Source: Candidatus Binatia bacterium
GTDB taxonomy: Bacteria > Desulfobacterota > Binatia > Bin18
Length of the DNA stretch: 64,000 nucleotides
Direction of reading: 5' to 3'
NCBI GenBank assembly: GCA_963664395.2
Contig: OY761159.2
Location: 2,656,001-2,720,000 of the forward strand
Positions 1-12,672 of this stretch are shown here, piece after piece. A program made the position numbers and the translations under genes. Position 1 is the stretch's first letter; every line of letters begins with the position of its first letter. The notes below the pieces were generated by a model. It did not search any database, was not told the DNA's origin, and saw nothing but the letters and a program-made list of their open reading frames with translations.

Positions 1-1
1 G

Positions 2-547
2 CTGTGCGCCGTGCCCTCCACGCCGGAAGATGCCAAGGGGCTGCTGAAGCAAGCCATTCGACTGAATAACCCGGTCATCTATTTTGAGCATAAACTGCTG
101 TACCAAATGCGGGGTGAGGTGCCGGACGGAGAGGTGCTGACGCCTTTTGGGAAAGCGGTAGTCCGGCGCGAGGGCGAAGCGGTGACGATTGTAGCCTGGC
201 AGGACATGCTGCGGCGTACGCTCACCGCCGCGGAGCGACTGAGCCGGGAAGGGATCGAAGTCGAGATCGTTGACCCGCGCACCTTGAACCCTTTTGATCG
301 CGAAACTATTGTCGAGTCGGTCAAAAAGACCGGGGCCTGTATTGTAGTAGAAGAAGCCTATCGCACCCTCGGGGTCGGCGCGGAGATTGGGGCCATGCTC
401 CTGGAGGACGCGCTACCGTATATGGACAAGCCCTTCAAACGCCTGGCTATTCCCGATGTCCCGATTCCCACCAGCCAGCATCTTGTTGATGCCATCGTGC
501 CCGGTGTGGATGATATTTACCAGGCTGTAAAAGAAATCACTGCCTGA
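2..547 (+). CDS. 2-oxoacid/acetoin dehydrogenase E1 beta subunit, C-terminal part (5' end outside window)
   Basis: Transketolase C-terminal motifs PVIYFEHKLLY, EIVDPRTLNPFD and VVEEA; frame is open to the window edge; directly followed by E2. Confidence 0.9.
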   Translation: MCAVPSTPEDAKGLLKQAIRLNNPVIYFEHKLLYQMRGEVPDGEVLTPFGKAVVRREGEAVTIVAWQDMLRRTLTAAERLSREGIEVEIVDPRTLNPFDRETIVESVKKTGACIVVEEAYRTLGVGAEIGAMLLEDALPYMDKPFKRLAIPDVPIPTSQHLVDAIVPGVDDIYQAVKEITA

Positions 548-554
548 GGTCGGC

Positions 555-2144
555 GTGCAAAATATCAAAGTGCTGATGCCCAAACTCGGCCAGGCCATGA
601 CCGAGGGCACGGTCGTGGCCTGGCACCGTGCCGCGGGCGAACGGATTGAAGCCGGTGAACTGCTCGTGACCGTGGAGACCGACAAGGCCACCTACGACTT
701 GGAGGCTGCCGCCGGCGGTACGGTCCATATTCTTGTGCAGGCAGGTGAAGAGGTTCCGATTCATACAGTCATCGGTGAAATCGGTGAGGTGCCGGTGCAA
801 ACAGCGGCGTCAGCGCCTCCCCTACTCACCATCCCGAACGCTCCACCGCAGAAGGGGCCGGGACGAGTGCTCGCCTCACCAAAAGCCAAACGGCTGGCGG
901 CTGAACATGGAATTGACCTTTCCACACTTATCCCGTCTTCCTCGGATGGCATGATCTCGGCATCTGATGTGGAGCGCGCGGTTGCCAATCAGCAGCCAGC
1001 CGTGTCCGCCTTACCTTCTTCCGCACGGACTGAGCGCGAACGCCGCCCTCTGACCGGCATTCGGAAGGCCTCCGCCCGCCGGGTCCAAGCAGCCTGGCAG
1101 ACCATTCCGCATATTGTCCAGATGATTGATGTCGATGCGAGTGCACTCCGAACAGTGCGTGATAAACTTAAAACAGAAGTCTCAGGGCTGACGCTCAACG
1201 ACTTGATTTTATACGCAGTTGCGCGGGTGCTGGCCGGACTGCCCGATCTCAACGGCACGATCGAGAACGAGGAACTTGTCCTGTATGACGGCGTGGATAT
1301 CGGCTTTGCCGTTGATTCGCCGCGCGGTCTGCTGGTGCCGGTCATCCGTGGGGCGGACTCCCTCTCCATAGCACAACTTGTTACGGAAAGTCAGCGACTC
1401 GTTGAAGCCGCTCGGGCGGGTCAGCTTGGGCCGGACGATATGGGCCATGCCAGTCTGACCGTCTCGAACCTCGGCATGTTCGGCATTCGGGCCGGCACAC
1501 CGGTCATTAATCTTGGTGAGCCGCTTCTTGTCTTTGTGGGCGCGGTTGAAGAGCGGCCGGTCGTGCGGAATGGGCAGATTATCGCCCGTCCCATGCTGAC
1601 GCTCAGCATTGCGTATGACCATAGAGTTGCGGACGGGGTCGCGGCATCTCGTTTGAGTCAGGGTCTCAAAGAGGCGCTGGAGAATCTGGAGTCAGAGCCC
1701 TTCTTGGAAGCCCCCAACCCCCAAGAAGCCCTGGACAAACGGGAAGTCCGTTCGGTGTCTACCGGCGATCGGTATGCCGTTCAGGTGCGTAGTGACGGCC
1801 ATGTCTGGAGCCTTGATGAGCCGGCGAGCGACGGCGGAGAAGATACCGGCCCAGACCCGGTGACTGCCTTTCTCGGAGCGCTCCTGTCGTGCCTGACCAT
1901 TGCCTTCAAAGCCGCTGCTCGTCGTCGCAAGGTTAAAATTGGACGGATTGAAGGGCATGTCAAGGCGACGCCGAAGGGCCATGTGAAAGCAATATCCTTA
2001 ACGCTGGAAGTGTGGAGTTCGGCTTTAGAGCAAGACTTGCAAATCCTCCTCGAACGGGCCACGCGCGGTTGCTATGTTAGTGGGGTGTTGAAGCCGGATA
2101 TCGATTTTGTGGTGGAGTTGGTCAGGCACCCGCCGGCCGCTTAG
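555..2144 (+). CDS. Dihydrolipoamide acyltransferase E2 (lipoyl, subunit-binding and catalytic domains) fused to a C-terminal OsmC-family domain
   Basis: Lipoyl motif VETDKA, subunit-binding domain ASPKAKRLAAEHGIDL, catalytic DHRVADG; then about 135 extra aa with DEP..GG.DTGPDP..FLGALLSC and GCYVS, typical of OsmC/Ohr. Confidence 0.85.
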   Translation: MQNIKVLMPKLGQAMTEGTVVAWHRAAGERIEAGELLVTVETDKATYDLEAAAGGTVHILVQAGEEVPIHTVIGEIGEVPVQTAASAPPLLTIPNAPPQKGPGRVLASPKAKRLAAEHGIDLSTLIPSSSDGMISASDVERAVANQQPAVSALPSSARTERERRPLTGIRKASARRVQAAWQTIPHIVQMIDVDASALRTVRDKLKTEVSGLTLNDLILYAVARVLAGLPDLNGTIENEELVLYDGVDIGFAVDSPRGLLVPVIRGADSLSIAQLVTESQRLVEAARAGQLGPDDMGHASLTVSNLGMFGIRAGTPVINLGEPLLVFVGAVEERPVVRNGQIIARPMLTLSIAYDHRVADGVAASRLSQGLKEALENLESEPFLEAPNPQEALDKREVRSVSTGDRYAVQVRSDGHVWSLDEPASDGGEDTGPDPVTAFLGALLSCLTIAFKAAARRRKVKIGRIEGHVKATPKGHVKAISLTLEVWSSALEQDLQILLERATRGCYVSGVLKPDIDFVVELVRHPPAA

Positions 2145-2150
2145 GGACCT

Positions 2151-2180
2151 GTCGGGTTACGCTGCGCTAACCCGACCTAC
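2151..2180. repeat. REP-like palindrome between convergent genes
   Basis: GTCGGGTTA-CGCTGCGC-TAACCCGAC followed by CTAC (GTAG on the minus strand). Confidence 0.6.
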
Positions 2181-2204
2181 GGGCTTATTCCCGGCTATTC
2201 CCGG

Positions 2205-3140
2205 TTATGTTTGCAGTGCGGTTCTCAGCGCTGCCGCGGCTTTTTGTAATGCCTGACCCGCCGGCTCAATGACCTTGGCCATGCCCATAAAGCCGTGGAT
2301 GAGCCCTTCGAAACAGATGTATTCAACCGCGACTCCCGCCTCACTCAGCTTGGTCGCATACGCGGCCCCCTCGTCCCGCAAGGGATCGTATTCCGCGGTG
2401 GCAATAAAGGCCGGTGGCAGGCCGCGGCATTGGTCGGTCGATGCCCGCAGTGGGGAGGCCAGCGGATTTTGTCCATCTGCCTCACTCGCGAGGTAGTGAT
2501 CCCAGAACCACGCCATCATCTCAGTCGTAAGAAAATAGCCTTGCGCATTTTCTGTGTGCGACGGCATGGCAAATGCGTGGCCCGTGACCGGATACATGAG
2601 GAGTTGATACGCGAGAGAAGGCAGGCCACTCTCTTGCGCTTTTAAGGTCACCGCCGCGGCCAGGTTGGCACCGGCACTTTCACCGCCCACCGCAAGCCGA
2701 GCGGCATCTCCGTTCAAGGCCGCGGCGTTTAACGCTACCCAGCGGGCCGCGGCGTAGCAGTCATCGACCGCTGCCGGAAATTTATCTTCCGGCGCGAGTC
2801 GGTAGTCGGCCGAGACAACCATACAGTCAGCAAGATTGGTCAATGCCCGGCAGGACGCATCCACGGTATTAATACTGCCAACCACCCAGCCGCCCCCGTG
2901 AAAATAGACCAGTATGGGAAACGGTCCGTCTCCCTCGGGTGTGTAAATACGGATAGGCTGTTTGCCCGCAACTCCGGGTATCAGCCGGTCTTCGACCGTG
3001 CCGACCTTCTCAGGGTCATCCGTCGCGCCCCGCGCGGCTTCCATAGCCGCGCGCGCTGCTTGGGGCGAAAGATGATGTAAGGGCGGGCCGGCAGCGGCCA
3101 TTTGTTCGAGCGCTTTTGCGACCTGGGGATGGAGCGGCAT
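2205..3140 (-). CDS. HSL-family alpha/beta hydrolase (esterase/lipase)
   Basis: HGGGW oxyanion motif, GESAG nucleophile elbow, DPLRDEG, HGF. Confidence 0.9.
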   Translation of the reverse strand: MPLHPQVAKALEQMAAAGPPLHHLSPQAARAAMEAARGATDDPEKVGTVEDRLIPGVAGKQPIRIYTPEGDGPFPILVYFHGGGWVVGSINTVDASCRALTNLADCMVVSADYRLAPEDKFPAAVDDCYAAARWVALNAAALNGDAARLAVGGESAGANLAAAVTLKAQESGLPSLAYQLLMYPVTGHAFAMPSHTENAQGYFLTTEMMAWFWDHYLASEADGQNPLASPLRASTDQCRGLPPAFIATAEYDPLRDEGAAYATKLSEAGVAVEYICFEGLIHGFMGMAKVIEPAGQALQKAAAALRTALQT

Positions 3141-3167
3141 GGAGTGTTCCTTTCAGTTAAGTTCAAA

Positions 3168-3950
3168 TTATGTCAGAAAGTTTCGCACGAGTTGGACAAA
3201 TTCGGTCGGCTTTTCTAACGGCGGGCAATTCCCGCATTGAGGGATAATTTCTACGCGAGCGTTGGAAAGAGCCTGCTGATACAAAGCGCTGCATTCCAGC
3301 GGAACGATCTGATCCTCCTGCCCCCAGATAATGAGGGTTGGAATAGTAACCCGGCCTAACAGCCCGGGCAGGCTGGGGCTGAACATATACGGCTTCCAGC
3401 AGTAGCGCACCACGGTTTCCTGGTTGCGCGTCTGTATAGCGCGCTCTTCTTTGGAAGGCTTGCGTTGAAACAGTTCTGCATACTCGGAAACCTGCTGTGG
3501 GTCGAAATACGCCAGCTGTCTGGTGCCCTCCTGTCCGTGCAGAAAGATATCAGAGATTTCTCCGTCCCGCGGTTGGATACCGGCCGCATCAATCAGAATG
3601 AGACGCTCAAGCGTGCTCGGCGACATGGCCGCCATTTCGGCTGCCAGCCAGCCGCCGATAAAATGGCCGGCCAAAGTAACCTGGGTGAGACCTAATCCGT
3701 CCAACAGCCATAAGCTGAATCGCGCCAAATCCGTAAAGGTTTCCAACCAGGGCGGACGTTCCGACTGTCCAAAGCCCGGACAGGTTGGCGCATAGACGGT
3801 GAAGTGCTCGGCTAACTGTTCGTGATACTGGCGCCAACCAAGATTGCCCTCAACGCCGTGCAGCATGACCAGCGGCTTTCCCCGACCGCCTTTCAGATAG
3901 TGAATCCTGGCTCCCCCAACTTCGATATACTGTTCTTCATGTCCTGCCAT
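3168..3950 (-). CDS. Alpha/beta hydrolase-fold protein with degenerate catalytic residues
   Basis: PLVMLHG, PGFGQS and PTLIIWGQED; elbow reads GHFIGG and the His position reads GNCPPLE; start re-chosen at MAGHEEQ. Confidence 0.75.
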   Translation of the reverse strand: MAGHEEQYIEVGGARIHYLKGGRGKPLVMLHGVEGNLGWRQYHEQLAEHFTVYAPTCPGFGQSERPPWLETFTDLARFSLWLLDGLGLTQVTLAGHFIGGWLAAEMAAMSPSTLERLILIDAAGIQPRDGEISDIFLHGQEGTRQLAYFDPQQVSEYAELFQRKPSKEERAIQTRNQETVVRYCWKPYMFSPSLPGLLGRVTIPTLIIWGQEDQIVPLECSALYQQALSNARVEIIPQCGNCPPLEKPTEFVQLVRNFLT

Positions 3951-3969
3951 TGTCGTATCTCTCTGTGTC

Positions 3970-5190
3970 CTATGGCGTGTGTTCAAAGGGTCCGGGCAGC
4001 CCCAGTTCTTTTCCCATTTCCCGTACTGCCGGGAGCACATCATGTTCCATGAGGGCTAAACAGCGCATCGTGTCCTCATGCCCGATGGTGCCGTCATTTG
4101 TCCAGACGCCAAGAATCCCGGGGCGGACAACGCTGAGTACTTCCCGTAATTTCCTGACTACGGTGTCCGGATTGCCAACAATAACCCGGTTGCTTTCCAC
4201 AACCTTTTCCCAGCCCGCGGAATCAACTCCACCGTAGAGGGGATCAGGCCGGAGTGAATAGCGCCGGTACTGGTCTACAATGCGCTTGGCGCCTTCACGT
4301 GAGTTATAGCCCGGAGGAGCCATGAAGTCTCCCGGGAGCGGCACGCGGCCTACACCGGCATTGCCAATCAGAAAGCCTTTCCCAACGTCGTAGGCTTTTT
4401 CATCCGTGTCCTGGACGTGGACGCGGACGAGATAGCCGAAGTTTTGTGGTCCGGGCTCATAGCCGACTTGTTTCGCGGCTTCGGTATAAATTGTGGTCAG
4501 GTCCAAAGTGACCTGTGGGTCGGTTTCCAGGTAAATATAGGGATAGTGGTGGTGGGCACACCAGATAAGCGTCTCCGGACTGCCAATGCCCGGAATCCAA
4601 ATGGGCGGATGTGGCTGCTGAAGCGGACGTTCAAATGGATTGACCACCCGAAACTGATAATGTTTGCCTTCCCAGCGCCACGGCCCTGGTGTTGTCCAGG
4701 TTTTGATAATCAGGTCGTGTGCCTCTTCAAAGCGCTCGCGGTTATACACCGGGTTGGTGTTCGTAGCCCAGCTCTCAATGCCCGTCCCACGCACAAAGCC
4801 GGACACCAGTCGCCCCCGAGAGATCATATCGATTTCTGCCAGCTCCTCGGCCAGACGAAGAGGATTATCGAAAATCGGGAGTGGATTGCCGAGTAGAACG
4901 ATCTTCGCCCGCTTGGTGGTTCGGGCCAGAATCGCGGCTTCGAGATTCATGGCCGCGCCCATGCACGTCGGGGTATTGTGATGCTCATTCAGCATCAGGC
5001 CGTCGAAGCCAACCGCTTCAGCATACTCGTACTCGTCGAGATAGGTATTATACAGGTCCGCACCCAGGGTGGGATTGAAATGTGAATTTGGAAACGTCAG
5101 GCGAACCGCGCTCCGAAAGCTCTGGCGCACGTCCTCTTCCGAGTAATCCACATAGGCCCGTTCAGTAAAACGCATGAGAAACATACCCAT
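3970..5190 (-). CDS. LLM-class flavin-dependent oxidoreductase
   Basis: GFDGLMLNEHH, PLRLAEELAEIDMISRGR, PLQQPHPPIW. Confidence 0.9.
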   Translation of the reverse strand: MGMFLMRFTERAYVDYSEEDVRQSFRSAVRLTFPNSHFNPTLGADLYNTYLDEYEYAEAVGFDGLMLNEHHNTPTCMGAAMNLEAAILARTTKRAKIVLLGNPLPIFDNPLRLAEELAEIDMISRGRLVSGFVRGTGIESWATNTNPVYNRERFEEAHDLIIKTWTTPGPWRWEGKHYQFRVVNPFERPLQQPHPPIWIPGIGSPETLIWCAHHHYPYIYLETDPQVTLDLTTIYTEAAKQVGYEPGPQNFGYLVRVHVQDTDEKAYDVGKGFLIGNAGVGRVPLPGDFMAPPGYNSREGAKRIVDQYRRYSLRPDPLYGGVDSAGWEKVVESNRVIVGNPDTVVRKLREVLSVVRPGILGVWTNDGTIGHEDTMRCLALMEHDVLPAVREMGKELGLPGPFEHTP

Positions 5191-5311
5191 GCCCCCCCTT
5201 TCTTCACCCGGACACTATCGTGTCTTGTATAACAGGATCAAGAGAAAGAGAGGAGACAGCTTGACTCTTGTCGGCAAGCCGCGTACGGGTAGCCACAGAG
5301 GAGGGCTGACT

Positions 5312-5728
5312 ATGGCAAAGATGTACGCCAAGAATACGATTTCTTATGAGTCCGCAGCAAAAATGGTCGCCGCCGCCATCGCCAAAGCAGAAGAGCTGGG
5401 CTGCAAACAGAACGTCGCAGTGGTGGATGACGGCGGTAACCTTAAAGCTTTTGGCCGCATGGACGGTGCCGCACTTCTTGGTGTGGAAGGCTGTCAACGC
5501 AAGGCGTTTACCGCGTTGTTTGGGGTGGGGACAAAAGACCTCTACAACGCGATCAAAGACGACCAGTCCTTAGTTGTCGGTTTGTCCCATTTTTCTCGGG
5601 CCACCATGGTCGGTGGTGGGCTGCCGATTATATCCGACGGGGAGATCCTCGGTGGGATCGGCGTTGGCGGCGGAACGGTCGATGAAGACGTCGCCTGCTC
5701 ACAAGCCGGGCTGGACGCGCTCACCTAG
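5312..5728 (+). CDS. GlcG/HbpS-family heme-binding protein
   Basis: VAVVDDGGNL..F.RMDGA, KAFTA, GGLPI, GGIGVGGG..DED; AGGAGG upstream of ATG 5312. Confidence 0.85.
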   Translation: MAKMYAKNTISYESAAKMVAAAIAKAEELGCKQNVAVVDDGGNLKAFGRMDGAALLGVEGCQRKAFTALFGVGTKDLYNAIKDDQSLVVGLSHFSRATMVGGGLPIISDGEILGGIGVGGGTVDEDVACSQAGLDALT

Positions 5729-6120
5729 ATCGGGCGCGGCACCCGTGGGACGGGGCGTTGTGACCCACCCGGCGGCTGGGTCTTTTGGGAAGTCTCTTCC
5801 CCATCGCCCGCCCGGAGTTGGTCCCGGCTACAGAGCCCCTTTTCGATCAAGACCTTTTCAAACGAGGCCAGCCAGTGTTCGTAATAGCCGGGCAAGGAGG
5901 CGTCGGGAGCGTCCGCCCGAGCTTGATCGGTAGCCCCGATTTCCGTAATCAAGTGGTCGCGAAATTCGTCCCACTGAAAGTGGCCCTGTTCACATAGGGC
6001 CACGGCCAAGGCAAAGGCGCGCCTTTCCCAGGCGGCGTGGAAGACCAGCTCGCCACTTTTCCGCGGAAGGGCAGAGTCCCCTTCCATATTTGAGATCTTT
6101 CGATTTGGCGTATGTTTCAT
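5725..6120 (-). CDS. Nitrile hydratase accessory (activator, P14K/NhhG-like) protein
   Basis: [22 protein letters not shown] and [11 protein letters not shown]; overlaps the alpha-subunit stop. Confidence 0.85.
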
Positions 6121-6779
6121 GCTGCTGGGGGTTGGACCTTGGCTACGCCGATCATGGAGTCGCGGCTGACCAGCACGGTGAGTTCCTCTTCACTCATGCC
6201 CTCGGTTCCGGCGGGACGTTCGGGCAAGACCATATAGCGGATTTCCGCGCTACTATCCCAGACCTTCACCGCAGTTGACTCGTCAAGTTCAAGACCAAAA
6301 TCACGCAGTACGCCGCGTGGGTCCACAACGGAACGGGAACGATACGCCGCGTCCTTAAACCAGGCGGGTGGGAGTCCGAGAACCGGCCACGGATAGCAGG
6401 AGCACAAAGTACACACGACCATATGGTGGATGTCGGGTGTGTTCTCAACCACCACCATGTGCTCGCCTTGGAGGCCGCTAAAACCGAGTTCACCAATGGC
6501 TGCGGTGGCGTCTTTGAGTAAGCGCTTTTTATACGCAGGATCGACCCAGGCCCGGGCCACAACTCTGGCCCCATTCGTCGGCCCGAGGTCATTTTCATAG
6601 GTCTCGACCAATTTATCGAGAGTTTCTGAAGAGACCAGACCCTTGGCAACCAGTAAGGACTCTAACGCCTGCACCCGTTTCTCCAGGGCTGCGGTCTGCT
6701 CCGGGGTGGCGTGTTTTTCCAAGTACGGATTGGGCGGTGCATCGTGTGCGCTATGACCATGAGAATGATCGTTGCTCAT
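6117..6779 (-). CDS. nthA: Nitrile hydratase alpha subunit, cobalt type
   Basis: Metal-binding motif [10 protein letters not shown] (Thr/Tyr variant marks the Co type); His-rich N-terminus; RBS before MSNDHSH. Confidence 0.95.
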
Positions 6780-6790
6780 GACTCCTCTCC

Positions 6791-7450
6791 TTACGCTGGG
6801 TCGAGATAATCTTCCCACAGGTCGATATACAGATTGTCTGTCGTGGCCGTGTCCGGGCCCCAGAGTTCCTGGGCGCTAAAGCAGACCGAATACAGTGGCT
6901 GTGGCTGTTCACCCCGGCCGTGGGCATTGGTATCCGGGTAGACAAAGGTGCCGTGGACTTGATCGATGACCCCGTTTTTTCCGCGGACATAACGCGGCAG
7001 CCGTGTGTGCCCGGTTGGATTGAGGTTGCGCGCCTGGACTTTGTCGCCAACTGAGAAACGAGGGGTCAGGCGGCCTTCTGCCCGATTGCACGGAGCCCCT
7101 CCTTTCACAACCGCCGGGACTGCTTCGGGTGGAAGCGGACCTTCTGCCCGCTTGCTTGTTTCTGTGGCAACCCCTGTTGCCAGTTCTTCCGGGGTGAGGA
7201 CACCTTTTTCCACGGCGAGAGTTTCCAGTGCGGCCAGCCAGTGCTCATAATAGGTTGAGGAGAGATAATGGGCGGGGTCCATGCGTTCGATTGCATGTCG
7301 AAAGCCATCGAGCGTATCGAGTTGGCCCATGCCGAGCATGGTCATCGCAAACACTCGCTTTTCCCACTCGGCGTGGAAAATCGGCTCATTTTCTTCCGGC
7401 TTGACCGGACCATAACAGGTCATGCCACCCATGTCATGCACGCCATTCAT
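6791..7450 (-). CDS. nthB: Nitrile hydratase beta subunit
   Basis: [40 protein letters not shown]. Confidence 0.95.
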
Positions 7451-7484
7451 AGATCTTTCTCCTCAGGCTGAACGCTTGGCCAGA

Positions 7485-7513
7485 ACTCTAACACTCGCTC
7501 TGGCGAGGGTCAA
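7485..7513 (-). promoter_or_regulatory. Sigma70-type promoter of the nitrile hydratase operon
   Basis: Minus strand TTGACC-N17-TAGAGT with TG extension, about 35 nt upstream of nthB. Confidence 0.55.
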
Positions 7514-7535
7514 TAAATTGAGCGGCCTGAGTGCT

Positions 7536-8366
7536 CTAGGCTTTACTCCGCGACATCTGCATCCACGTTTGAGCGACTTCGAGATGGGTCGCAAACCAGA
7601 CCCCTTCGTGTTTGAGCATGTGTTGAATGAGCCGTTCCAGCATCGCCATGCGCGAGCGCCGGCCGATAATTTGCGGATGCATGACAATGCCGAGAAAGCC
7701 GCCGTCCGCATAGGCGCCGTCAAACTCAGCCTGCCAGATTTCATACACCTTATTCTGGCTCGACATGCCAGTGATGTAGGGAGAGAAAGTAAACAGAAAA
7801 TGCGGCGCATCGTCCATTTCCCAACTATAGGGAATTTCCAAGAGTCGGCGGCTCGTCTGTGGTGTCGTCAGCCAGTAGGGGTTATCGTCGCCCACGAGGC
7901 TGCTGTCATACACAAAATCATGGTCGAGTAATAAATCGAAGGTATGCGGCCCGGTATTTCCGGCTGGAGAGCGGTAGCCCCTTGGCGCTTGGCCGGTAAT
8001 CCGTTTCAGGCTCTCCGTTCCTTTCAATAACACTTCAAGCTCAACCTCACGGCCCTTGTTACCAACAAACTCATGTTCATAGCCGTGATGTCCAATTTCA
8101 TGCCCGTCAGCGCACATCTGTTCAATCAAATGCGGGTATTTGTCAGCCGACCAGCCCGGCACAAAGAAGGTCGCCCTCAGCCCATACTTTTTGAGGAGAT
8201 TGAGAATACGCGGCACCCCAGCCCGCGCGCCATACTCACCGCGCGACATCTGGCCCGGAAAGGGCTGGCGCATAGTCCGAAACCACAAGGTTTCGGCATC
8301 AAAGTCAAAACTCAGTCCAACTGCACAGCGTGTATTGTCCGGCCACATTGGATGCTCCTCTGTCAC
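7536..8366 (-). CDS. Polysaccharide deacetylase (CE4/PuuE-like) family protein
   Basis: SFDFD, ATFFVPG, HEIGHHGYEH, GYRSP, YDSS, MHPQIIG. Confidence 0.85.
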   Translation of the reverse strand: MTEEHPMWPDNTRCAVGLSFDFDAETLWFRTMRQPFPGQMSRGEYGARAGVPRILNLLKKYGLRATFFVPGWSADKYPHLIEQMCADGHEIGHHGYEHEFVGNKGREVELEVLLKGTESLKRITGQAPRGYRSPAGNTGPHTFDLLLDHDFVYDSSLVGDDNPYWLTTPQTSRRLLEIPYSWEMDDAPHFLFTFSPYITGMSSQNKVYEIWQAEFDGAYADGGFLGIVMHPQIIGRRSRMAMLERLIQHMLKHEGVWFATHLEVAQTWMQMSRSKA

Positions 8367-8498
8367 AACTCAGGTCAGTGTTTCGTCCGACTGTAAAAGA
8401 GTGGGTCGATATTCTCAACGGATACTGCACGGAATATCCGCCCGCCGTTGAAAAACAGCAGGTGACGTTCTAGGCTGAAAAAACCACGGAGAAAAAAG

Positions 8499-9116
8499 AT
8501 GTCTCAAGCAAATAAGCCAAGCTGGCCAAGCTGGGCGGAGTATTCCATACCGGTGAAAATCAATGTGCAGGCAGTCCAACTGACAGATGAACAGTTCGTG
8601 CTGCTGTGCCAAGAGAATCCAGAGCTACGGCTTGAGCTGACTGCGCAGCACGAGTTGGTGATTATGCCTCCAACAGGGTCAAAGACAGGCTGGCGGAATA
8701 GTAAACTCACACAACGTTTAGCAAACTGGGCCGAAACGGATGGGACCGGTCTGGTATTCGATTCTTCAACCGGATTCATACTGCCGAATGGAGCAAAACG
8801 TTCGCCAGATGGTTCCTGGGTGAGACGGGCACGCTGGGAGGCTTTGACCGAAGTACAGCAGAACGGCTTTGCCCCGCTGTGTCCCGATTTTGTGGTTGAG
8901 CTTCGCTCGCAACAAGACAGACTCGCCGTCCTGCAAGAGAAAATGCAGGAATACCTTGCAACTGGTGCGCAGCTCGGGTGGCTGATTGATCCGCTTGAAA
9001 AGCGTGTCCATATCTACCGCCCAAAGCAGGCGGTTGAGATTCGTGATGATCCGGCTTCACTCGCTGGTGAGTCCGTCCTGCCAGGATTCGTCTTACACGT
9101 TCAGGAGTTGTGGTAG
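8499..9116 (+). CDS. Uma2 (DUF820) family endonuclease-fold protein
   Basis: LRLELTAQHELVIMPP, FDSSTGF.LPNGA.RSPD, CPDFVVELRS, LGWLIDP. Confidence 0.9.
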   Translation: MSQANKPSWPSWAEYSIPVKINVQAVQLTDEQFVLLCQENPELRLELTAQHELVIMPPTGSKTGWRNSKLTQRLANWAETDGTGLVFDSSTGFILPNGAKRSPDGSWVRRARWEALTEVQQNGFAPLCPDFVVELRSQQDRLAVLQEKMQEYLATGAQLGWLIDPLEKRVHIYRPKQAVEIRDDPASLAGESVLPGFVLHVQELW

Positions 9117-9157
9117 GAAAAAGCCGAAGCAAGCGACAACTTATTGAGAGGACGTCA

Positions 9158-9373
9158 ATGCGGAACGAATTTACCGCGCTGATCGAGCGGGACAACGACT
9201 GGTATATTGCCTACTGTCCCGAAATTCCCGGAGCAAACGGCCAAGGCCGCACTCCAGCCGAAGCGCGCGCAAGCGTAGCCGAGGCTATTGCGTTGATTCT
9301 TGAGGATCGCCGGGAGGACGCACTCCGTGGGCTGCCAGCCGACGCCATCAGGGAAACGGTGATTGTCGAGTGA
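9158..9373 (+). CDS. hicB: HicB-family antitoxin (short form)
   Basis: WYIAYCPEIPGANGQGRT..EA..S..EAI; GAGG RBS; GTGA overlap with hicA. Confidence 0.85.
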   Translation: MRNEFTALIERDNDWYIAYCPEIPGANGQGRTPAEARASVAEAIALILEDRREDALRGLPADAIRETVIVE

Positions 9374-9558
9374 AGCGGAGTGCTCTCCTGCGGCACTTAC
9401 GTCGGTATGGCTGCTATCTCAAGCGTGAAGGACGGGGACATTCCTTATGGTGTAATCCTACGACTGGTGCTGTAGAGACAGTACCGCGCCATACTGAGAT
9501 CCCCAACGGACTGGCGCGGAAGATTTGCCGTAACCTGTCAGTTCCTGAAATCGGCTGA
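9370..9558 (+). CDS. hicA: HicA-family toxin
   Basis: MKR..LLRHL...GC...REG.GHSLW, VPRHTEI. Confidence 0.85.
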   Translation: MKRSALLRHLRRYGCYLKREGRGHSLWCNPTTGAVETVPRHTEIPNGLARKICRNLSVPEIG

Positions 9559-9744
9559 CGAAGTAGGGACTCCACAGCCTTCGCTGGAAGTGTTGACTCC
9601 CCTTGGACTCGTCGAAGCAGAAGAGCGGGAGCTACCTCGCCAGCGTAAATGTCCAGTGAGTACCTTTGATCAGCTGGATATAGAAGTATATTTGTAGTCT
9701 CGTATGTCGATGTTTTTTGTCAGCCCATTCGATGGAGGTTGTCA

Positions 9745-12672
9745 GTGAGTACGTCCTATCATGCGAAATATTTTGCTCATCAGCTAACAAGAAAGTGTTC
9801 TGCTCATGAGATCGAAAAACTGAATCAGTCGATATTCAATGCCACTGTCGATCTCAATCCGCATCAGATTGATGCCGCCCTTTTTGCCTTCCGTTCCCCA
9901 CTCTCACGTGGGGCTATCCTTGCCGACGAAGTGGGATTGGGGAAGACGATTGAGGCAGGGCTGATCCTTAGCCAACTCTGGGCTGAGCGAAAGCGGAAGG
10001 TTCTGTGCATTGTTCCGGCTGCTCTGCGGAAACAATGGAATAGAGAGCTGATCGAGAAATTTTTCATCGACTCTGTCATCTTGGAATCAAAAAGCTATAA
10101 CCACTTGGTTAAACAGGAAATATCGAATCCCTTTGAGCAGGATGACAAGGTCATTTTGTGCTCGCACCATTTCGCACGGAGTAAAGAGCACGATATCCGA
10201 CAAATACCCTGGGACCTCGTCATTATCGATGAGGCCCATCGACTCAGAAATGTTTATAAAAAGAGCAATAAGATAGCCCGTTCTATCCGGGATTCTATTG
10301 GAAGTAGGCCCAAGGTCCTTCTCACTGCCACTCCGTTCCAAAACTCGCTCATGGAGTTATACGGCCTCATGAGCTTTGTTGACGATCATTTGTTTGGGAA
10401 CGAAAGCTCTTTTCGGGAACAGTTTGCCCGAAATGCAGTCGAAATTGGAGAAGACGGGTTTAGCGACCTTCGTTCTCGGATGCGTCCAGTCTGCCAGCGG
10501 ACACTACGGCGGCAGGTATCGGAATACGTCCGCTACACAAATCGTATTTCGATTACCCAGGACTTTACACCGACTGATGACGAGGTGGATCTATACAATG
10601 GGGTCTCTGAGTATCTGCAACGTCCCGACTCATTTGCGCTTCCTTCTGGTCAACGTTCGCTAATGACTCTGATTCTCAGGAAAATACTTGCCTCTTCTTC
10701 CTTTGCAATTGCAGCTACTCTTGGATCGCTTATTGACCGCCTCGAAGGAGAGATCTCGGAAATAGATGATTCGCCCGAAGCGGAAGAGGAACTCTTTGAG
10801 TCTATCAATGCGGACGTTGAGACCGTTGCCGAAACACAGGAAGAGTGGAGCGAGAAAGGAGACGAAGAGTCAGTCAGCATAGGGGAGAGCGGAGGGTTAA
10901 GCGACGACGAAGAGAAGGTGCTCCTGCTTCAATCTATTCGCCAAGAAGTCAGCGACCTCCAAAGCTACCGCGAGTTAGCCCAATCCATCACACAAAATGC
11001 GAAAGGCCAGGCGTTGTTGGTGGCTTTAAGGACAGGCTTCCAGAAAGCTGCGGATTTAGGGGCGACTCGTAAGGCCCTCGTATTTACTGAATCACGCCGG
11101 ACCCAGCAATATCTTGTTGAGCTTTTAGAAACGAGCGGGTACCGAGATCAGATTGTCACTTTGAACGGAACAAACAATGATCCACACTCTAAAATAGTTT
11201 ACAAGGCCTGGCTCCAGCGTCACGCAGGGCAGGATGAGATAACAGGCTCCCCAACCGCTGACATGCGTTCGGCACTCGTAGAAGAGTTCCGCGAACGTGC
11301 GTCAATTATGATTGCTACGGAATCTGGAGCCGAAGGGTTAAACCTCCAATTTTGCAGTCTCATCGTAAACTATGATCTTCCCTGGAATCCTCAACGTATT
11401 GAGCAGCGGATTGGGCGCTGTCATCGGTACGGCCAACAACATGACGTGGTAGTGGTCAATTTTCTTAATCGGAGGAACGCCGCCGATCAGCGTGTCTTTG
11501 AGTTGTTGTCAGCAAAACTGCAACTATTTGATGGCGTCTTTGGGACATCGGATGAAGTGCTGGGTGTGATGGAGTCTGGGGTCGATTTTGAGAAACGAAT
11601 CAACGAGATCTATCAATCCTGCCGGTCTCCTGAAGATATTAACGAGGCGTTCGATCAGCTTCAACTTGAGCTGGATGATCAGATCCGTGCACGTATGGAG
11701 GATACTCGGACAAAGCTTCTTGAGCACTTCGATGAAGATGTTCATCAGCGGTTAAAACTTACCCACGACGATACTGAGCAGCAGATTAATCGTTTTCAAG
11801 AATGGTTATGGAATCTTACTCAGTATGAGTTAGCCGACTGCGCTCAATTCGTTCCGGACGAGTATGTATTTGAGCTAACCCGTATTCCTGAAGGTATAGA
11901 TACGGAAGAAATAGCACTTGGGCATTACCGTCTTATTACTCAGAAGAATGGGACTGCCGATCACCACTTTCGCCTTGGTCACCCCCTTGCTGCGCGTTTA
12001 CTAGCACGGGCTAAGGAACGGCCACTTCCTGCGCGTGAAGTCATCTTTGAGTACGCCCAGCATCCTAAAAGGATTAGTATTGTTGAACAGCTACAAGGGA
12101 AGTCTGGTTGGCTTCGCCTCTCCCTAGTGTCTATCGAAGCCTTAGAGCAAGAGGACCACCTCATTCTCACCGGGATTTCTGATGATGGGACTGCGCTTGA
12201 TTCCGAGATATGCGAGCGATTGTTTTCCATAACTGGCACCAGCGGGGATGAGGTAGCTCTGCCGGACGCAGTCTCTGCCCGATTAGAACAAGACTTTGAA
12301 GAGGCCAAGAATCGCACGGTGACTGAGACGACTGGGCGTAATCAGGCGTATTTTGAAGTAGAAATGGATAAGCTCGAAAAATGGGCAGATGACTTGAAGG
12401 CCAACCTCGAACAAGAACTGAAGGCTCTCGATAAGGAAATTAAATCGACCAAGAAAGAGGCGCGACAAGTCGCAGACCTTGATGCCAAAGTTGAACTGCA
12501 TAAGCAGGCGAGAACGCTGGAACGGAGACGCAGCGAAAAACGTCGAAGCCTGTTTGACGCTCAAGACGAAGTGGACAATCGCAAAGAAAGATTGATTGAA
12601 GAAATAGAATCTCGACTCAAACAGAATCTCACTCAAATAACTGTATTTACTGTTCGGTGGACGGTTATATGA
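9745..12672 (+). CDS. SNF2-family helicase/ATPase
   Basis: LADEVGLGKT, DEAH, TATP, GAEGLNLQ, YDLPWNPQRIEQRIGRCHRYGQ; C-terminal coiled coil; GGAGG precedes GTG 9745. Confidence 0.9.
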   Translation: MSTSYHAKYFAHQLTRKCSAHEIEKLNQSIFNATVDLNPHQIDAALFAFRSPLSRGAILADEVGLGKTIEAGLILSQLWAERKRKVLCIVPAALRKQWNRELIEKFFIDSVILESKSYNHLVKQEISNPFEQDDKVILCSHHFARSKEHDIRQIPWDLVIIDEAHRLRNVYKKSNKIARSIRDSIGSRPKVLLTATPFQNSLMELYGLMSFVDDHLFGNESSFREQFARNAVEIGEDGFSDLRSRMRPVCQRTLRRQVSEYVRYTNRISITQDFTPTDDEVDLYNGVSEYLQRPDSFALPSGQRSLMTLILRKILASSSFAIAATLGSLIDRLEGEISEIDDSPEAEEELFESINADVETVAETQEEWSEKGDEESVSIGESGGLSDDEEKVLLLQSIRQEVSDLQSYRELAQSITQNAKGQALLVALRTGFQKAADLGATRKALVFTESRRTQQYLVELLETSGYRDQIVTLNGTNNDPHSKIVYKAWLQRHAGQDEITGSPTADMRSALVEEFRERASIMIATESGAEGLNLQFCSLIVNYDLPWNPQRIEQRIGRCHRYGQQHDVVVVNFLNRRNAADQRVFELLSAKLQLFDGVFGTSDEVLGVMESGVDFEKRINEIYQSCRSPEDINEAFDQLQLELDDQIRARMEDTRTKLLEHFDEDVHQRLKLTHDDTEQQINRFQEWLWNLTQYELADCAQFVPDEYVFELTRIPEGIDTEEIALGHYRLITQKNGTADHHFRLGHPLAARLLARAKERPLPAREVIFEYAQHPKRISIVEQLQGKSGWLRLSLVSIEALEQEDHLILTGISDDGTALDSEICERLFSITGTSGDEVALPDAVSARLEQDFEEAKNRTVTETTGRNQAYFEVEMDKLEKWADDLKANLEQELKALDKEIKSTKKEARQVADLDAKVELHKQARTLERRRSEKRRSLFDAQDEVDNRKERLIEEIESRLKQNLTQITVFTVRWTVI

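Follow-up and report, generated by a model that had tools for sequence, protein, structure and literature searches.

Introduction

The peroxidases Ohr and OsmC are reduced by lipoylated proteins and not by the thioredoxin or glutathione systems (PMC8945050). In Xylella fastidiosa, a homodimeric Ohr, with two cysteines and the OsmC fold, works with LpdA and the lipoylated proteins SucB/PDHB, such that a lipoylated E2-type protein is the reductant and Lpd provides the link to NADH (PMC8945050). Here we describe a gene that brings related parts together in one polypeptide. It lies at positions 555 to 2144 of a 64,000-nucleotide stretch of DNA from Candidatus Binatia bacterium (assembly GCA_963664395.2, contig OY761159.2, positions 2,656,001 to 2,720,000 of the forward strand), which we call the window, and it encodes an E2 acyltransferase of a 2-oxoacid dehydrogenase complex that continues into an OsmC-like domain. 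A preliminary description of the window had suggested that this fusion re-oxidizes its own lipoyl arm, alongside or instead of lipoamide dehydrogenase (E3), and passes the electrons to hydroperoxides or another acceptor. Overall, that interpretation is partly supported by our analysis, and the path from lipoylated proteins to Ohr/OsmC on which it was built agrees with PMC8945050. Compared with the Xylella system, the peroxidase-like domain and the lipoyl carrier are here one polypeptide within a dehydrogenase core, the domain is without the catalytic Arg and Glu, and a peroxidase role can be proposed by analogy.

The domain resembles a third, 'Ohr-like' group of proteins, which comprises 2PN2, Aquifex AQ1549, Thermotoga TM0919, Thermoplasma Ta0195, Escherichia coli YhfA and Trichomonas TvOsmC (PMC5384416). 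Its members share a pair of cysteines ~60 residues apart, do not have the Arg and Glu on which peroxidase activity depends, and are the leading structural and profile matches of the domain described here. However, the known members are free-standing proteins of about 130–190 aa and not, like this domain, part of a protein with a complete E2. Both the natural donor of Ohr and OsmC in cells and the function of the 'Ohr-like'/YhfA branch are open questions (PMC5384416; PMC8945050).

A further likeness is found in Trichomonas vaginalis, whose glycine cleavage system is incomplete. Together with the L and H proteins of that system, its OsmC is a case of an Ohr-like protein that apparently needs a specific lipoylated protein and lipoamide dehydrogenase (PMC5384416; bioRxiv 10.64898/2026.10.01.755906). 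Activity of this protein was seen with the (lipoylated) L and H proteins of the same organism but, in another laboratory, not with free lipoamide (PMC5384416). Unlike in the fusion, the Trichomonas proteins are separate, the carrier is an H-protein and not an E2, and there is no E1-driven route. Similarly, in the mycobacterial AhpC-AhpD-DlaT(E2)-Lpd chain (described in part in PMC8945050), the lipoyl arm of an E2 feeds a peroxide-reducing thiol protein, but the adaptor has the AhpD fold with a CxxC motif, a peroxiredoxin acts as the peroxidase and all components are separate. Finally, in the hydrolase/OsmC proteins (9wo1, Sinorhizobium plasmid genes and the database match P0205) a related OsmC-like domain is C-terminal on another enzyme, but the partner there is a hydrolase and not a lipoyl protein.

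A complete E2 acyltransferase continues into an OsmC-like domain

The preliminary description had read the gene as one uninterrupted open reading frame (ORF) with lipoyl, subunit-binding, E2 catalytic and OsmC-like domains. Consistent with this, the frame at 555–2144 (+) has 529 codons with zero internal stops, and Pfam finds all four domains, each above its gathering score:

555..2144, + strand: E2-OsmC fusion gene, 529 aa, GTG start, TAG stop
570..782, + strand, residues 6–76: lipoyl domain, Pfam Biotin_lipoyl PF00364, E 1.6e-13
867..974, + strand, residues 105–140: peripheral subunit (E1/E3)-binding domain (PSBD), Pfam E3_binding PF02817, E 1.7e-09
1032..1691, + strand, residues 160–379: E2 acyltransferase catalytic domain, Pfam 2-oxoacid_dh PF00198, E 7.2e-67
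1692..1739, + strand, residues 380–395: linker between E2 core and OsmC-like domain, its length differing between strains and in the alignment, AF2 pLDDT <50 at residues 381–391
1740..2129, + strand, residues 396–525: OsmC-like ('Ohr-like') two-cysteine domain, from Pfam OsmC PF02566, AlphaFold 2 (AF2) and Foldseek

The E3_binding match scores 38.2 bits against a cut-off of 23.7, and the Pfam OsmC match (residues 428–519; E 1.9e-13) scores 51.1 bits against 27.5. The motifs reported earlier, ETDKA, DHRVADG and cysteine codons near 1890 and 2070, are exactly in the places given for them: the predicted lipoyl-lysine K44 (nucleotides (nt) 684–686) is within ETDKA (residues 41–45), DHRVADG forms residues 355–361 with H356 at nt 1620–1622, and the cysteines of the OsmC-like domain, C446 (nt 1890–1892) and C506 (nt 2070–2072), are 60 residues apart. 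The gene starts 8 nt past the stop codon of the E1β gene, and a GAGG that overlaps this stop codon lies 5 nt 5' of the GTG. With its lipoyl domain and lysine, its subunit-binding domain, the catalytic histidine of the DHR motif and the adjoining E1 genes, the protein is predicted to be a genuine member of the E2 family.

The order of lipoyl domain, PSBD and core is that of the canonical E2 of pyruvate dehydrogenase (E2p), and the catalytic domain is homologous to the E2p cores of Geobacillus stearothermophilus (1b5s, the closest solved chain, E 3.2e-39) and Azotobacter vinelandii (1eaa, E 2.9e-37). However, those proteins end a few residues past the last helix, whereas the fusion has ~150 residues more.

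The fusion gene is real and conserved in Binatia

One alternative is an artefact in which two separate genes were wrongly joined by assembly or annotation, and one relative (G446) does have its E2 and OsmC parts in different frames. However, the same continuous frame is shared by independent closed metagenome-assembled genomes (MAGs), cultured haloarchaea and contigs that come from other studies, and the indels of the linker come in multiples of three. Across the junction itself there is no stop or frameshift: in run X3, which comes from the study of the best holder but from a different sample, a 7514-nt contig covers 400–2178 with 0 differences and 0 gaps, and in run X4 (a different study) a 612-nt contig is 15 letters longer between 1693 and 1721, an addition of 5 codons that leaves the frame intact. 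These independent frames refute the artefact reading, to which we give virtually no weight; the fusion gene is real and conserved.

The predicted architecture also holds among homologues. In the 120 homologue clusters among the matches listed (527–591 aa), the lipoyl, catalytic and OsmC Pfam entries occur together in 120/120, and E3_binding is also found in 119/120. Databases give these proteins the plain name of an E2, to which some JGI names add a second label. A close relative of the OsmC part is present in 11 genomes named Candidatus Binatia, 10 of which have the order SDR-E1α-E1β-E2-OsmC (SDR, short-chain dehydrogenase/reductase), the remaining one (L023) being a decayed remnant. Within a sample of the class, an OsmC match lies inside an open frame of at least 500 aa in 41/301 genomes (the present genome, G000, included), a count that rests on frame length, the E2 part having been confirmed directly in 19 fetched Binatia loci. 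Any OsmC match at all was found in 65/301 genomes, among them G408 with a free-standing gene, which enters no fusion count. Matches in frames of at least 500 aa are distributed as follows:

same genus: 19/25 others
other genera of the family: 15/23
sister family: 1/1
second family: 5/49
other 17 families: 0

Outside the class, 0/195 sampled genomes of the phylum gave a match with this query at E ≤1e-10. The long open frames round the OsmC matches of G110 and G239 were set aside as chance, the actual genes being ~142–149 aa.

Fusions occur in haloarchaea and, in part with tandem OsmC domains, in hypersaline metagenomes

With the OsmC part alone as phmmer query, 478 of 1.84 billion representatives matched at E 0.001 or better, and domain sorting covered the best 150 of these 478. 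Among these best 150 are 20 full-length proteins with lipoyl(+PSBD)+catalytic+OsmC domains, 13 with catalytic+OsmC (apparently fragments for the most part) and 2 with lipoyl+OsmC; in 111 only the OsmC query matches, and 4 are without a domain match on re-scan. The distant full-length fusions include those of cultured haloarchaea (Halovalidus salilacus, Halomarina ordinaria and Halolamina), which are named merely '2-oxo acid dehydrogenase subunit E2' in databases, and Pfam confirmed the four domains in the five distant fusions checked. Further, scanning metagenome contigs with one haloarchaeal fusion revealed 9 further fused loci, all hypersaline. In 3/9 of these (L078 9001–11187; L079; L081) the product has 728 aa, with the PSBD in two copies and two OsmC domains in tandem, both cysteines being present in each repeat, which amounts to a built-in pseudo-dimer; this variant agrees with a domain that works only when paired.

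In a tree of 100 OsmC domains, which was built on few columns and in which many forks are unresolved, all 33 E2-fused OsmC domains (from the best 150 of 478) fall in one 56-row clade with a Shimodaira–Hasegawa-like approximate likelihood-ratio (SH-aLRT) support of 96, where some 'free' rows may be fragments. Two clades apart from it hold only unfused proteins, both free-standing ones and a few longer ones with other N-terminal parts.

Several other arrangements were seen in the same searches. P0159, P0255 and P0282 (241–247 aa) are two-domain proteins of lipoyl and OsmC parts, one of which bears the name 'OsmC family protein [Candidatus Binataceae bacterium]'. None has the lipoyl lysine: P0159 and P0282 have E at that position, and P0255 has G. 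The Rhizobium plasmid match H20 was rejected as a fusion, which it had seemed by coverage only, being really a 408-aa E2 followed by a separate ORF. OsmC-like domains are also C-terminal on α/β hydrolases (P0205, plasmid matches H54 and H55, and PDB 9wo1_A), and Sinorhizobium plasmid genes are annotated 'bifunctional alpha/beta hydrolase/OsmC family protein'. The neighbours of two free-standing OsmC genes on haloarchaeal plasmids were uninformative, and a protein atlas returned OsmC clusters only, with scores <0.8.

Catalytic residues of both parts are conserved

We compared 121 close homologues (59–98% identity) and a diverse set of 21 full-length fusions, in which the identity of the OsmC part goes down to about 26–30%. 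The lipoyl-lysine K44 and the residues D355, H356 and R357 of the DHR motif are invariant in both (121/121 and 21/21). In the OsmC-like domain, C446 and C506 are invariant in three alignments (121/121, 23/23 and 43/43) and are present in all 21 diverse fusions; P435, C446 and C506 are the only invariant residues across 43 fused and free OsmC domains. R396 and R504 are each found in 121/121 close homologues and are retained by most of the diverse fusions.

The OsmC-like domain is predicted to form a homodimer

The AF2 model of the OsmC-like domain has a predicted local distance difference test (pLDDT) score of 96.5, and Foldseek placed it, with template modelling (TM) scores of 0.77–0.81, beside 1lql (MPN625), 2onf (Ta0195), 1vla (TM0919), 1ml8 (YhfA), 2egt (AQ1549) and 2pn2. 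A profile search ranks entries of the same kind, with 9wo1 (400 aa) first among the solved chains (E 7.8e-23); 1nye and 1qwi (E. coli-type OsmC) reach just 31–32 bits with the profile.

A homodimer prediction for this domain scored 0.92, compared with 0.00 for the best of 3 controls; the pairing runs have at least 95% of their contacts in common, and the pLDDT of the partner is at least 92. The mark for pairing was reached by 20/30 chains solved as same-chain pairs and by 1/23 solved as single chains, reference counts that hold only roughly here because our own alignment was used for the pairing. In addition, because OsmC/Ohr dimers have already been solved, the pass may reflect likeness more than binding.

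A pairing domain at the C terminus could, in principle, serve the architecture of the complex and not its chemistry: it would be a dimerizing module that replaces or reinforces the contacts between E2 trimers, with the cysteines incidental. The last residues of canonical E2 cores form the contact that ties trimers into a 24- or 60-mer, and in the fusion these residues cannot be aligned, the alignment to 1b5s stopping at chain residue 235 of 242 (7 short of the end). The linker of the Binatia fusions is, moreover, short (~15–20 residues); with the predicted homodimer, subject to the caution just given, these points would suit such a structural role. However, two cysteines and one proline as the sole invariants over 43 domains are a catalytic and not a structural signature. 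Further, although the C-terminal stretch of E2 is variable in the Binatia fusions, it looks canonical in the haloarchaeal fusions, which join it to the OsmC-like domain by a long acidic linker, and the tandem OsmC-OsmC variant can pair inside one chain and need not bridge trimers. Since the cysteines are the most conserved residues and the tandem variant pairs within a chain, we consider a purely structural role very unlikely.

The fusion gene ends an E1α-E1β operon, and E3 is encoded elsewhere

The genes surrounding the fusion, with the first two given in window coordinates and the others in those of locus L007, are as follows:

2..547, + strand: E1β gene, 3' part (cut by the window start), Pfam Transketolase_C, E 1.3e-36
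2205–3140, − strand: esterase gene, Abhydrolase_3, Pfam PF07859, E 5.6e-78, convergent
L007 9736–10572: SDR, upstream of the fusion
L007 10602–11549: E1α, upstream of the fusion
L007 11549–12544: E1β, directly upstream of the fusion
L007 12555–14144: E2-OsmC, last gene of the SDR-E1α-E1β-E2 operon

Because the next gene is the convergent esterase, the operon ends at the fusion with no E3 gene downstream, as the preliminary description had noted. The same holds in relatives: E1α-E1β is directly upstream of the fusion in 19/19 intact Binatia loci, and an E3 gene was found within 8–9 kb in 0/19. In the hypersaline loci a convergent E1β-E1α pair accompanies the fusion in 8/9, the ninth contig being only 4 kb, and E3 was found within the fetched flanks in 0/9. 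The absence of E3 from homologous operons has an exception, in that lpdA adjoins the fusion on the Haloarcula ordinaria plasmid NZ_CP119790.1 (L051 6075–9871). There, a gene for an OsmC-family protein of 141 aa with the Ohr/OsmC-type Glu, the fusion gene (583 aa) and, directly downstream, lpdA follow one another, and no E1 gene lies within 6–7 kb of the fusion.

These observations bear on the claim that the OsmC-like domain acts instead of E3, so that oxidation by the complex would be obligatorily coupled to a hydroperoxide or other oxidant and not to NAD+. The lack of an E3 gene near the Binatia and hypersaline fusions speaks for it, as does the placing of one acceptor domain beside every lipoyl arm. 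However, the genome encodes lipoamide dehydrogenase elsewhere (G000:C1:4632540-4633916; TIGR01350, 568 bits, above the cut-off), in a gene that directly adjoins one for a canonical 426-aa E2, and an E3 over the NCBIfam cut-off is found in 27/28 genomes of the genus, the exception being 65% complete. The fusion retains its subunit-binding domain, lpdA directly follows the fusion gene in Haloarcula, and catabolic flux would presumably demand peroxide in stoichiometric amounts. Operons of the aco/PDH (pyruvate dehydrogenase) type without an E3 of their own are, moreover, not unusual. We therefore regard replacement of E3 as quite unlikely and find no support for this part of the earlier interpretation. 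The genome also has two lipoamide dehydrogenase paralogues near the cut-off, two other E2, four E1β and four OsmC-family genes.

The substrate of the complex would be pyruvate- or acetoin-like, to judge from the neighbouring genes. The upstream SDR scores 222 bits on the BudC (butanediol dehydrogenase) model, below its cut-off of 270, and the E1 subunits score best on PDH models (E1β 325 bits against 321, E1α 261 against 394). A gene with an NAD_kinase fold, which we take to resemble AcoX of acetoin operons, lies between E1β and the fusion in 2/2 hypersaline loci checked:

L075 11418–12440, − strand: ATP-NAD-kinase N-terminal fold gene, between the fusion and convergent E1β-E1α
L078 11212–12213, − strand: ATP-NAD-kinase N-terminal fold gene, between the fusion and convergent E1β-E1α

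A built-in peroxidase alongside E3 as the proposed function

The function that we favour, and to which we give about an even chance, is that of a built-in two-cysteine peroxidase, which would be reduced by the subunit's own dihydrolipoyl arm and would work alongside E3. The fusion would thus be a bifunctional core subunit of a dehydrogenase complex of the E1α/β type, pyruvate- or acetoin-like by its neighbours. Whereas architecture, conservation, fold, predicted pairing and context are observed, every chemical step of the mechanism is what we infer. From family membership and the conserved residues, E1 would load an acyl group onto lipoyl-K44, and the DHR-motif domain would transfer it to coenzyme A (CoA), leaving a dihydrolipoyl arm. 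This arm would normally be re-oxidized by the shared E3 encoded elsewhere; alternatively, it could pass its electrons to the disulfide between C446 and C506 in the Ohr-like domain at the C terminus, a domain that would be paired with its counterpart in a neighbouring subunit. By analogy with Ohr/OsmC, the reduced C446 would then attack an organic hydroperoxide, and C506 would resolve the resulting sulfenic acid, with electrons coming from the complex's own substrate or from NADH via E3 in reverse. The Haloarcula cluster is, as a set of genes, a parts list of the known Lpd/lipoyl-protein/OsmC peroxidase chain.

Several results weigh against this reading, the most direct of which concern the active site. 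In Ohr, the catalytic Glu is three residues past a conserved Pro and ahead of the peroxidatic Cys, and an Arg is in the loop between strands 1 and 2; the OsmC subfamily shares the Glu and has its Arg in the loop between strand 3 and helix 1 (PMC5384416). In the alignment to Xylella Ohr, C446 corresponds to the peroxidatic and C506 to the resolving Cys. However, the position of Glu51 is V436 here and Val in 119/121 homologues, and that of Arg19 is R406 here but among the 121 is G in 53, R in 37 and Q in 17, while the region of the OsmC-type Arg loop (residues 421–435) has no Arg in the fusion protein. In Xylella Ohr, the substitutions R19A and E51A leave residual activity only (PMC5962072). NCBIfam models give 17.2 bits for Ohr (TIGR03561, cut-off 88.85) and 48 bits for the best OsmC-type model, 'OsmC-related (seleno)protein' (cut-off 95). 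On these residues and profiles, the C-terminal domain is a member of the 'Ohr-like' third group and neither Ohr nor OsmC proper; an OsmC-like domain with both cysteines is present as first described. Its chemistry can therefore not be inferred from those two groups, and the third group has been called poorly characterised (PMC5384416; PMC8945050). Because the required Arg and Glu are absent, peroxidase activity is plausible but not assured, and for the same reason we hold our confidence at an even level and keep a non-peroxidase redox role as the first rival.

Of the remaining points on this side, one is structural: AF2 on residues 151–529 gave a predicted TM score (pTM) of 0.57 and a disordered linker, so that the position of the domain relative to the E2 core is not fixed and no statement on core/domain geometry is possible. 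P0159 and P0255, which might have been independent lipoyl-OsmC fusions, were dismissed as such since their lipoyl lysine is lost. Partial cover of the gene by contigs of RNA libraries that may contain DNA (X17 at 766–923 and 1714–2300; X19 at 400–469 and 1142–1394) does not prove transcription, and no meaning attaches to the stretches without cover. Further, the gene is decayed or frameshifted in at least three relatives (G345, G367 and G446) and is thus dispensable there. In G345 (L072, the same place as L023), SDR, E1α, E1β and the first 200 E2 codons are gone, and what is left is an E2 truncated to begin at residue 200, a frameshift in the linker and a TAG replacing W487 in the OsmC part; the fusion gene of G367 (L071) has two frameshifts and one stop, and that of G446 (L070) is the one split between frames. 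G221 (L063) has an OsmC gene beside short E1α and E2 fragments. Selenocysteine was rejected as an explanation of the stops within the OsmC match of three relatives, which are frameshifts or nonsense codons and not TGA at a Cys position.

The first rival is that the two-cysteine domain communicates with the lipoyl arm without being a peroxidase. It could be a relay that transfers thiol-disulfide equivalents to another acceptor, a stress switch that shuts the complex off under oxidative stress, or a guard or repair module for the lipoyl dithiol. Such a role would account for the invariance of both cysteines in a domain where the Arg and Glu of Ohr/OsmC peroxide reactivity are missing and where R396 and R504 are conserved instead, which hints at a different active-site layout, and the open function of the Ohr-like group leaves room for it (PMC5384416; PMC8945050). 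However, at least one Ohr-like member is reported to reduce peroxides with its own lipoylated partners (PMC5384416; bioRxiv 10.64898/2026.10.01.755906), the Haloarcula cluster, with its Glu-bearing OsmC-family gene and lpdA, looks like peroxide defence, and no gene for an alternative acceptor is conserved beside the Binatia or hypersaline fusion loci. A non-peroxidase redox role is thus possible but, in our judgement, distinctly less probable than the peroxidase.

A bolder version of the peroxidase reading is a self-contained substrate:hydroperoxide oxidoreductase, in which the arm would be re-oxidized in cis with no NAD+ or E3, peroxide would be the final electron acceptor, and OsmC dimers on the two-fold axes of the core would replace the contacts between trimers. 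We consider this unlikely. If it were true, the whole 'Ohr-like'/YhfA group would be lipoyl-protein-specific peroxidases, and the lipoamide dehydrogenase and lipoyl proteins of haloarchaea, whose role has to our knowledge long been unclear, would have been given one.

Relation to earlier work

The preliminary description knew of no characterised protein with this architecture, and in the literature that we searched, most subscription journals and supplementary tables (e.g. of PMC5384416) being outside its scope, no description of an E2-OsmC fusion was found. The Binatota genome paper PMC8262859 makes no mention of OsmC, acetoin, oxoacid, pyruvate dehydrogenase, lipoamide or 'peroxid-'. The single parts, and the electron path from lipoyl groups to OsmC/Ohr, are already known; new within the searched literature are the covalent fusion to a complete E2, its spread over Binatia and haloarchaea and the tandem variant. 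FTN_1133 of Francisella (PMC4069020) was considered for comparison and set aside, being outside the Ohr/OsmC family and without bearing here.

The conserved fusion of a member of the 'Ohr-like' branch to a complete, apparently active E2 would be a natural pointer to the partner and electron donor of that branch, and it occurs in two domains of life, in one variant as a tandem domain and in another beside lpdA. It thereby offers a one-protein system for asking whether Ohr-like domains are lipoyl-specific peroxidases, and bears on whether electrons that a dehydrogenase complex takes from its substrate can be used for peroxide defence. Because several cultured haloarchaea carry the fusion gene, genetics is possible.

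Neighbouring genes and other observations

The genome also has a free-standing paralogue of the OsmC-like domain (142 aa, 39% identity) at locus L004 1483–3335 (G000:C1, about 604 kb), with no lipoyl gene nearby. By eye, its neighbours are a 147-aa ORF that resembles the glyoxalase fold and a 317-aa ORF with a CcdA-like membrane part and a thioredoxin-like part (WCGPC).

Between the fusion gene and the esterase lies the following element:

2151..2176, no strand assigned: perfect palindrome with 9-bp arms and an 8-nt loop, between the convergent E2-OsmC and esterase genes

The palindrome pattern has 4 sites in the 5.0-Mb genome, compared with 0 for a reversed control, and it may be a bidirectional terminator or a repeated element. 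A scan for promoters and terminators gave nothing useful at the operon end, and Rfam found no family in window positions 1–4200. In four metagenome/metatranscriptome runs, the bin holding the palindrome has a summed contig depth of ~800–12,300 compared with ~3–54 in its flanks, and many loose contig ends lie at 2148–2150 and 2180–2184, on either side of it. It looks like a short element common to many organisms in those samples.

On the minus strand, 2205–4043 holds an Abhydrolase_3 gene and then an Abhydrolase_1 gene, convergent to the operon. The Abhydrolase_3 esterase neighbours the fusion in 10/11 named Binatia loci and is ~7 kb off in L026; both hydrolase genes are kept near the fusion in 9/11 named Binatia loci and in 4/4 loci from other genera of the family. 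Farther along the window, at 5725–7450 on the minus strand, are three adjacent ORFs (131, 233 and 219 aa) which, by eye, we take to resemble a nitrile hydratase cluster, the 233-aa product having the motif VCTLCSC.

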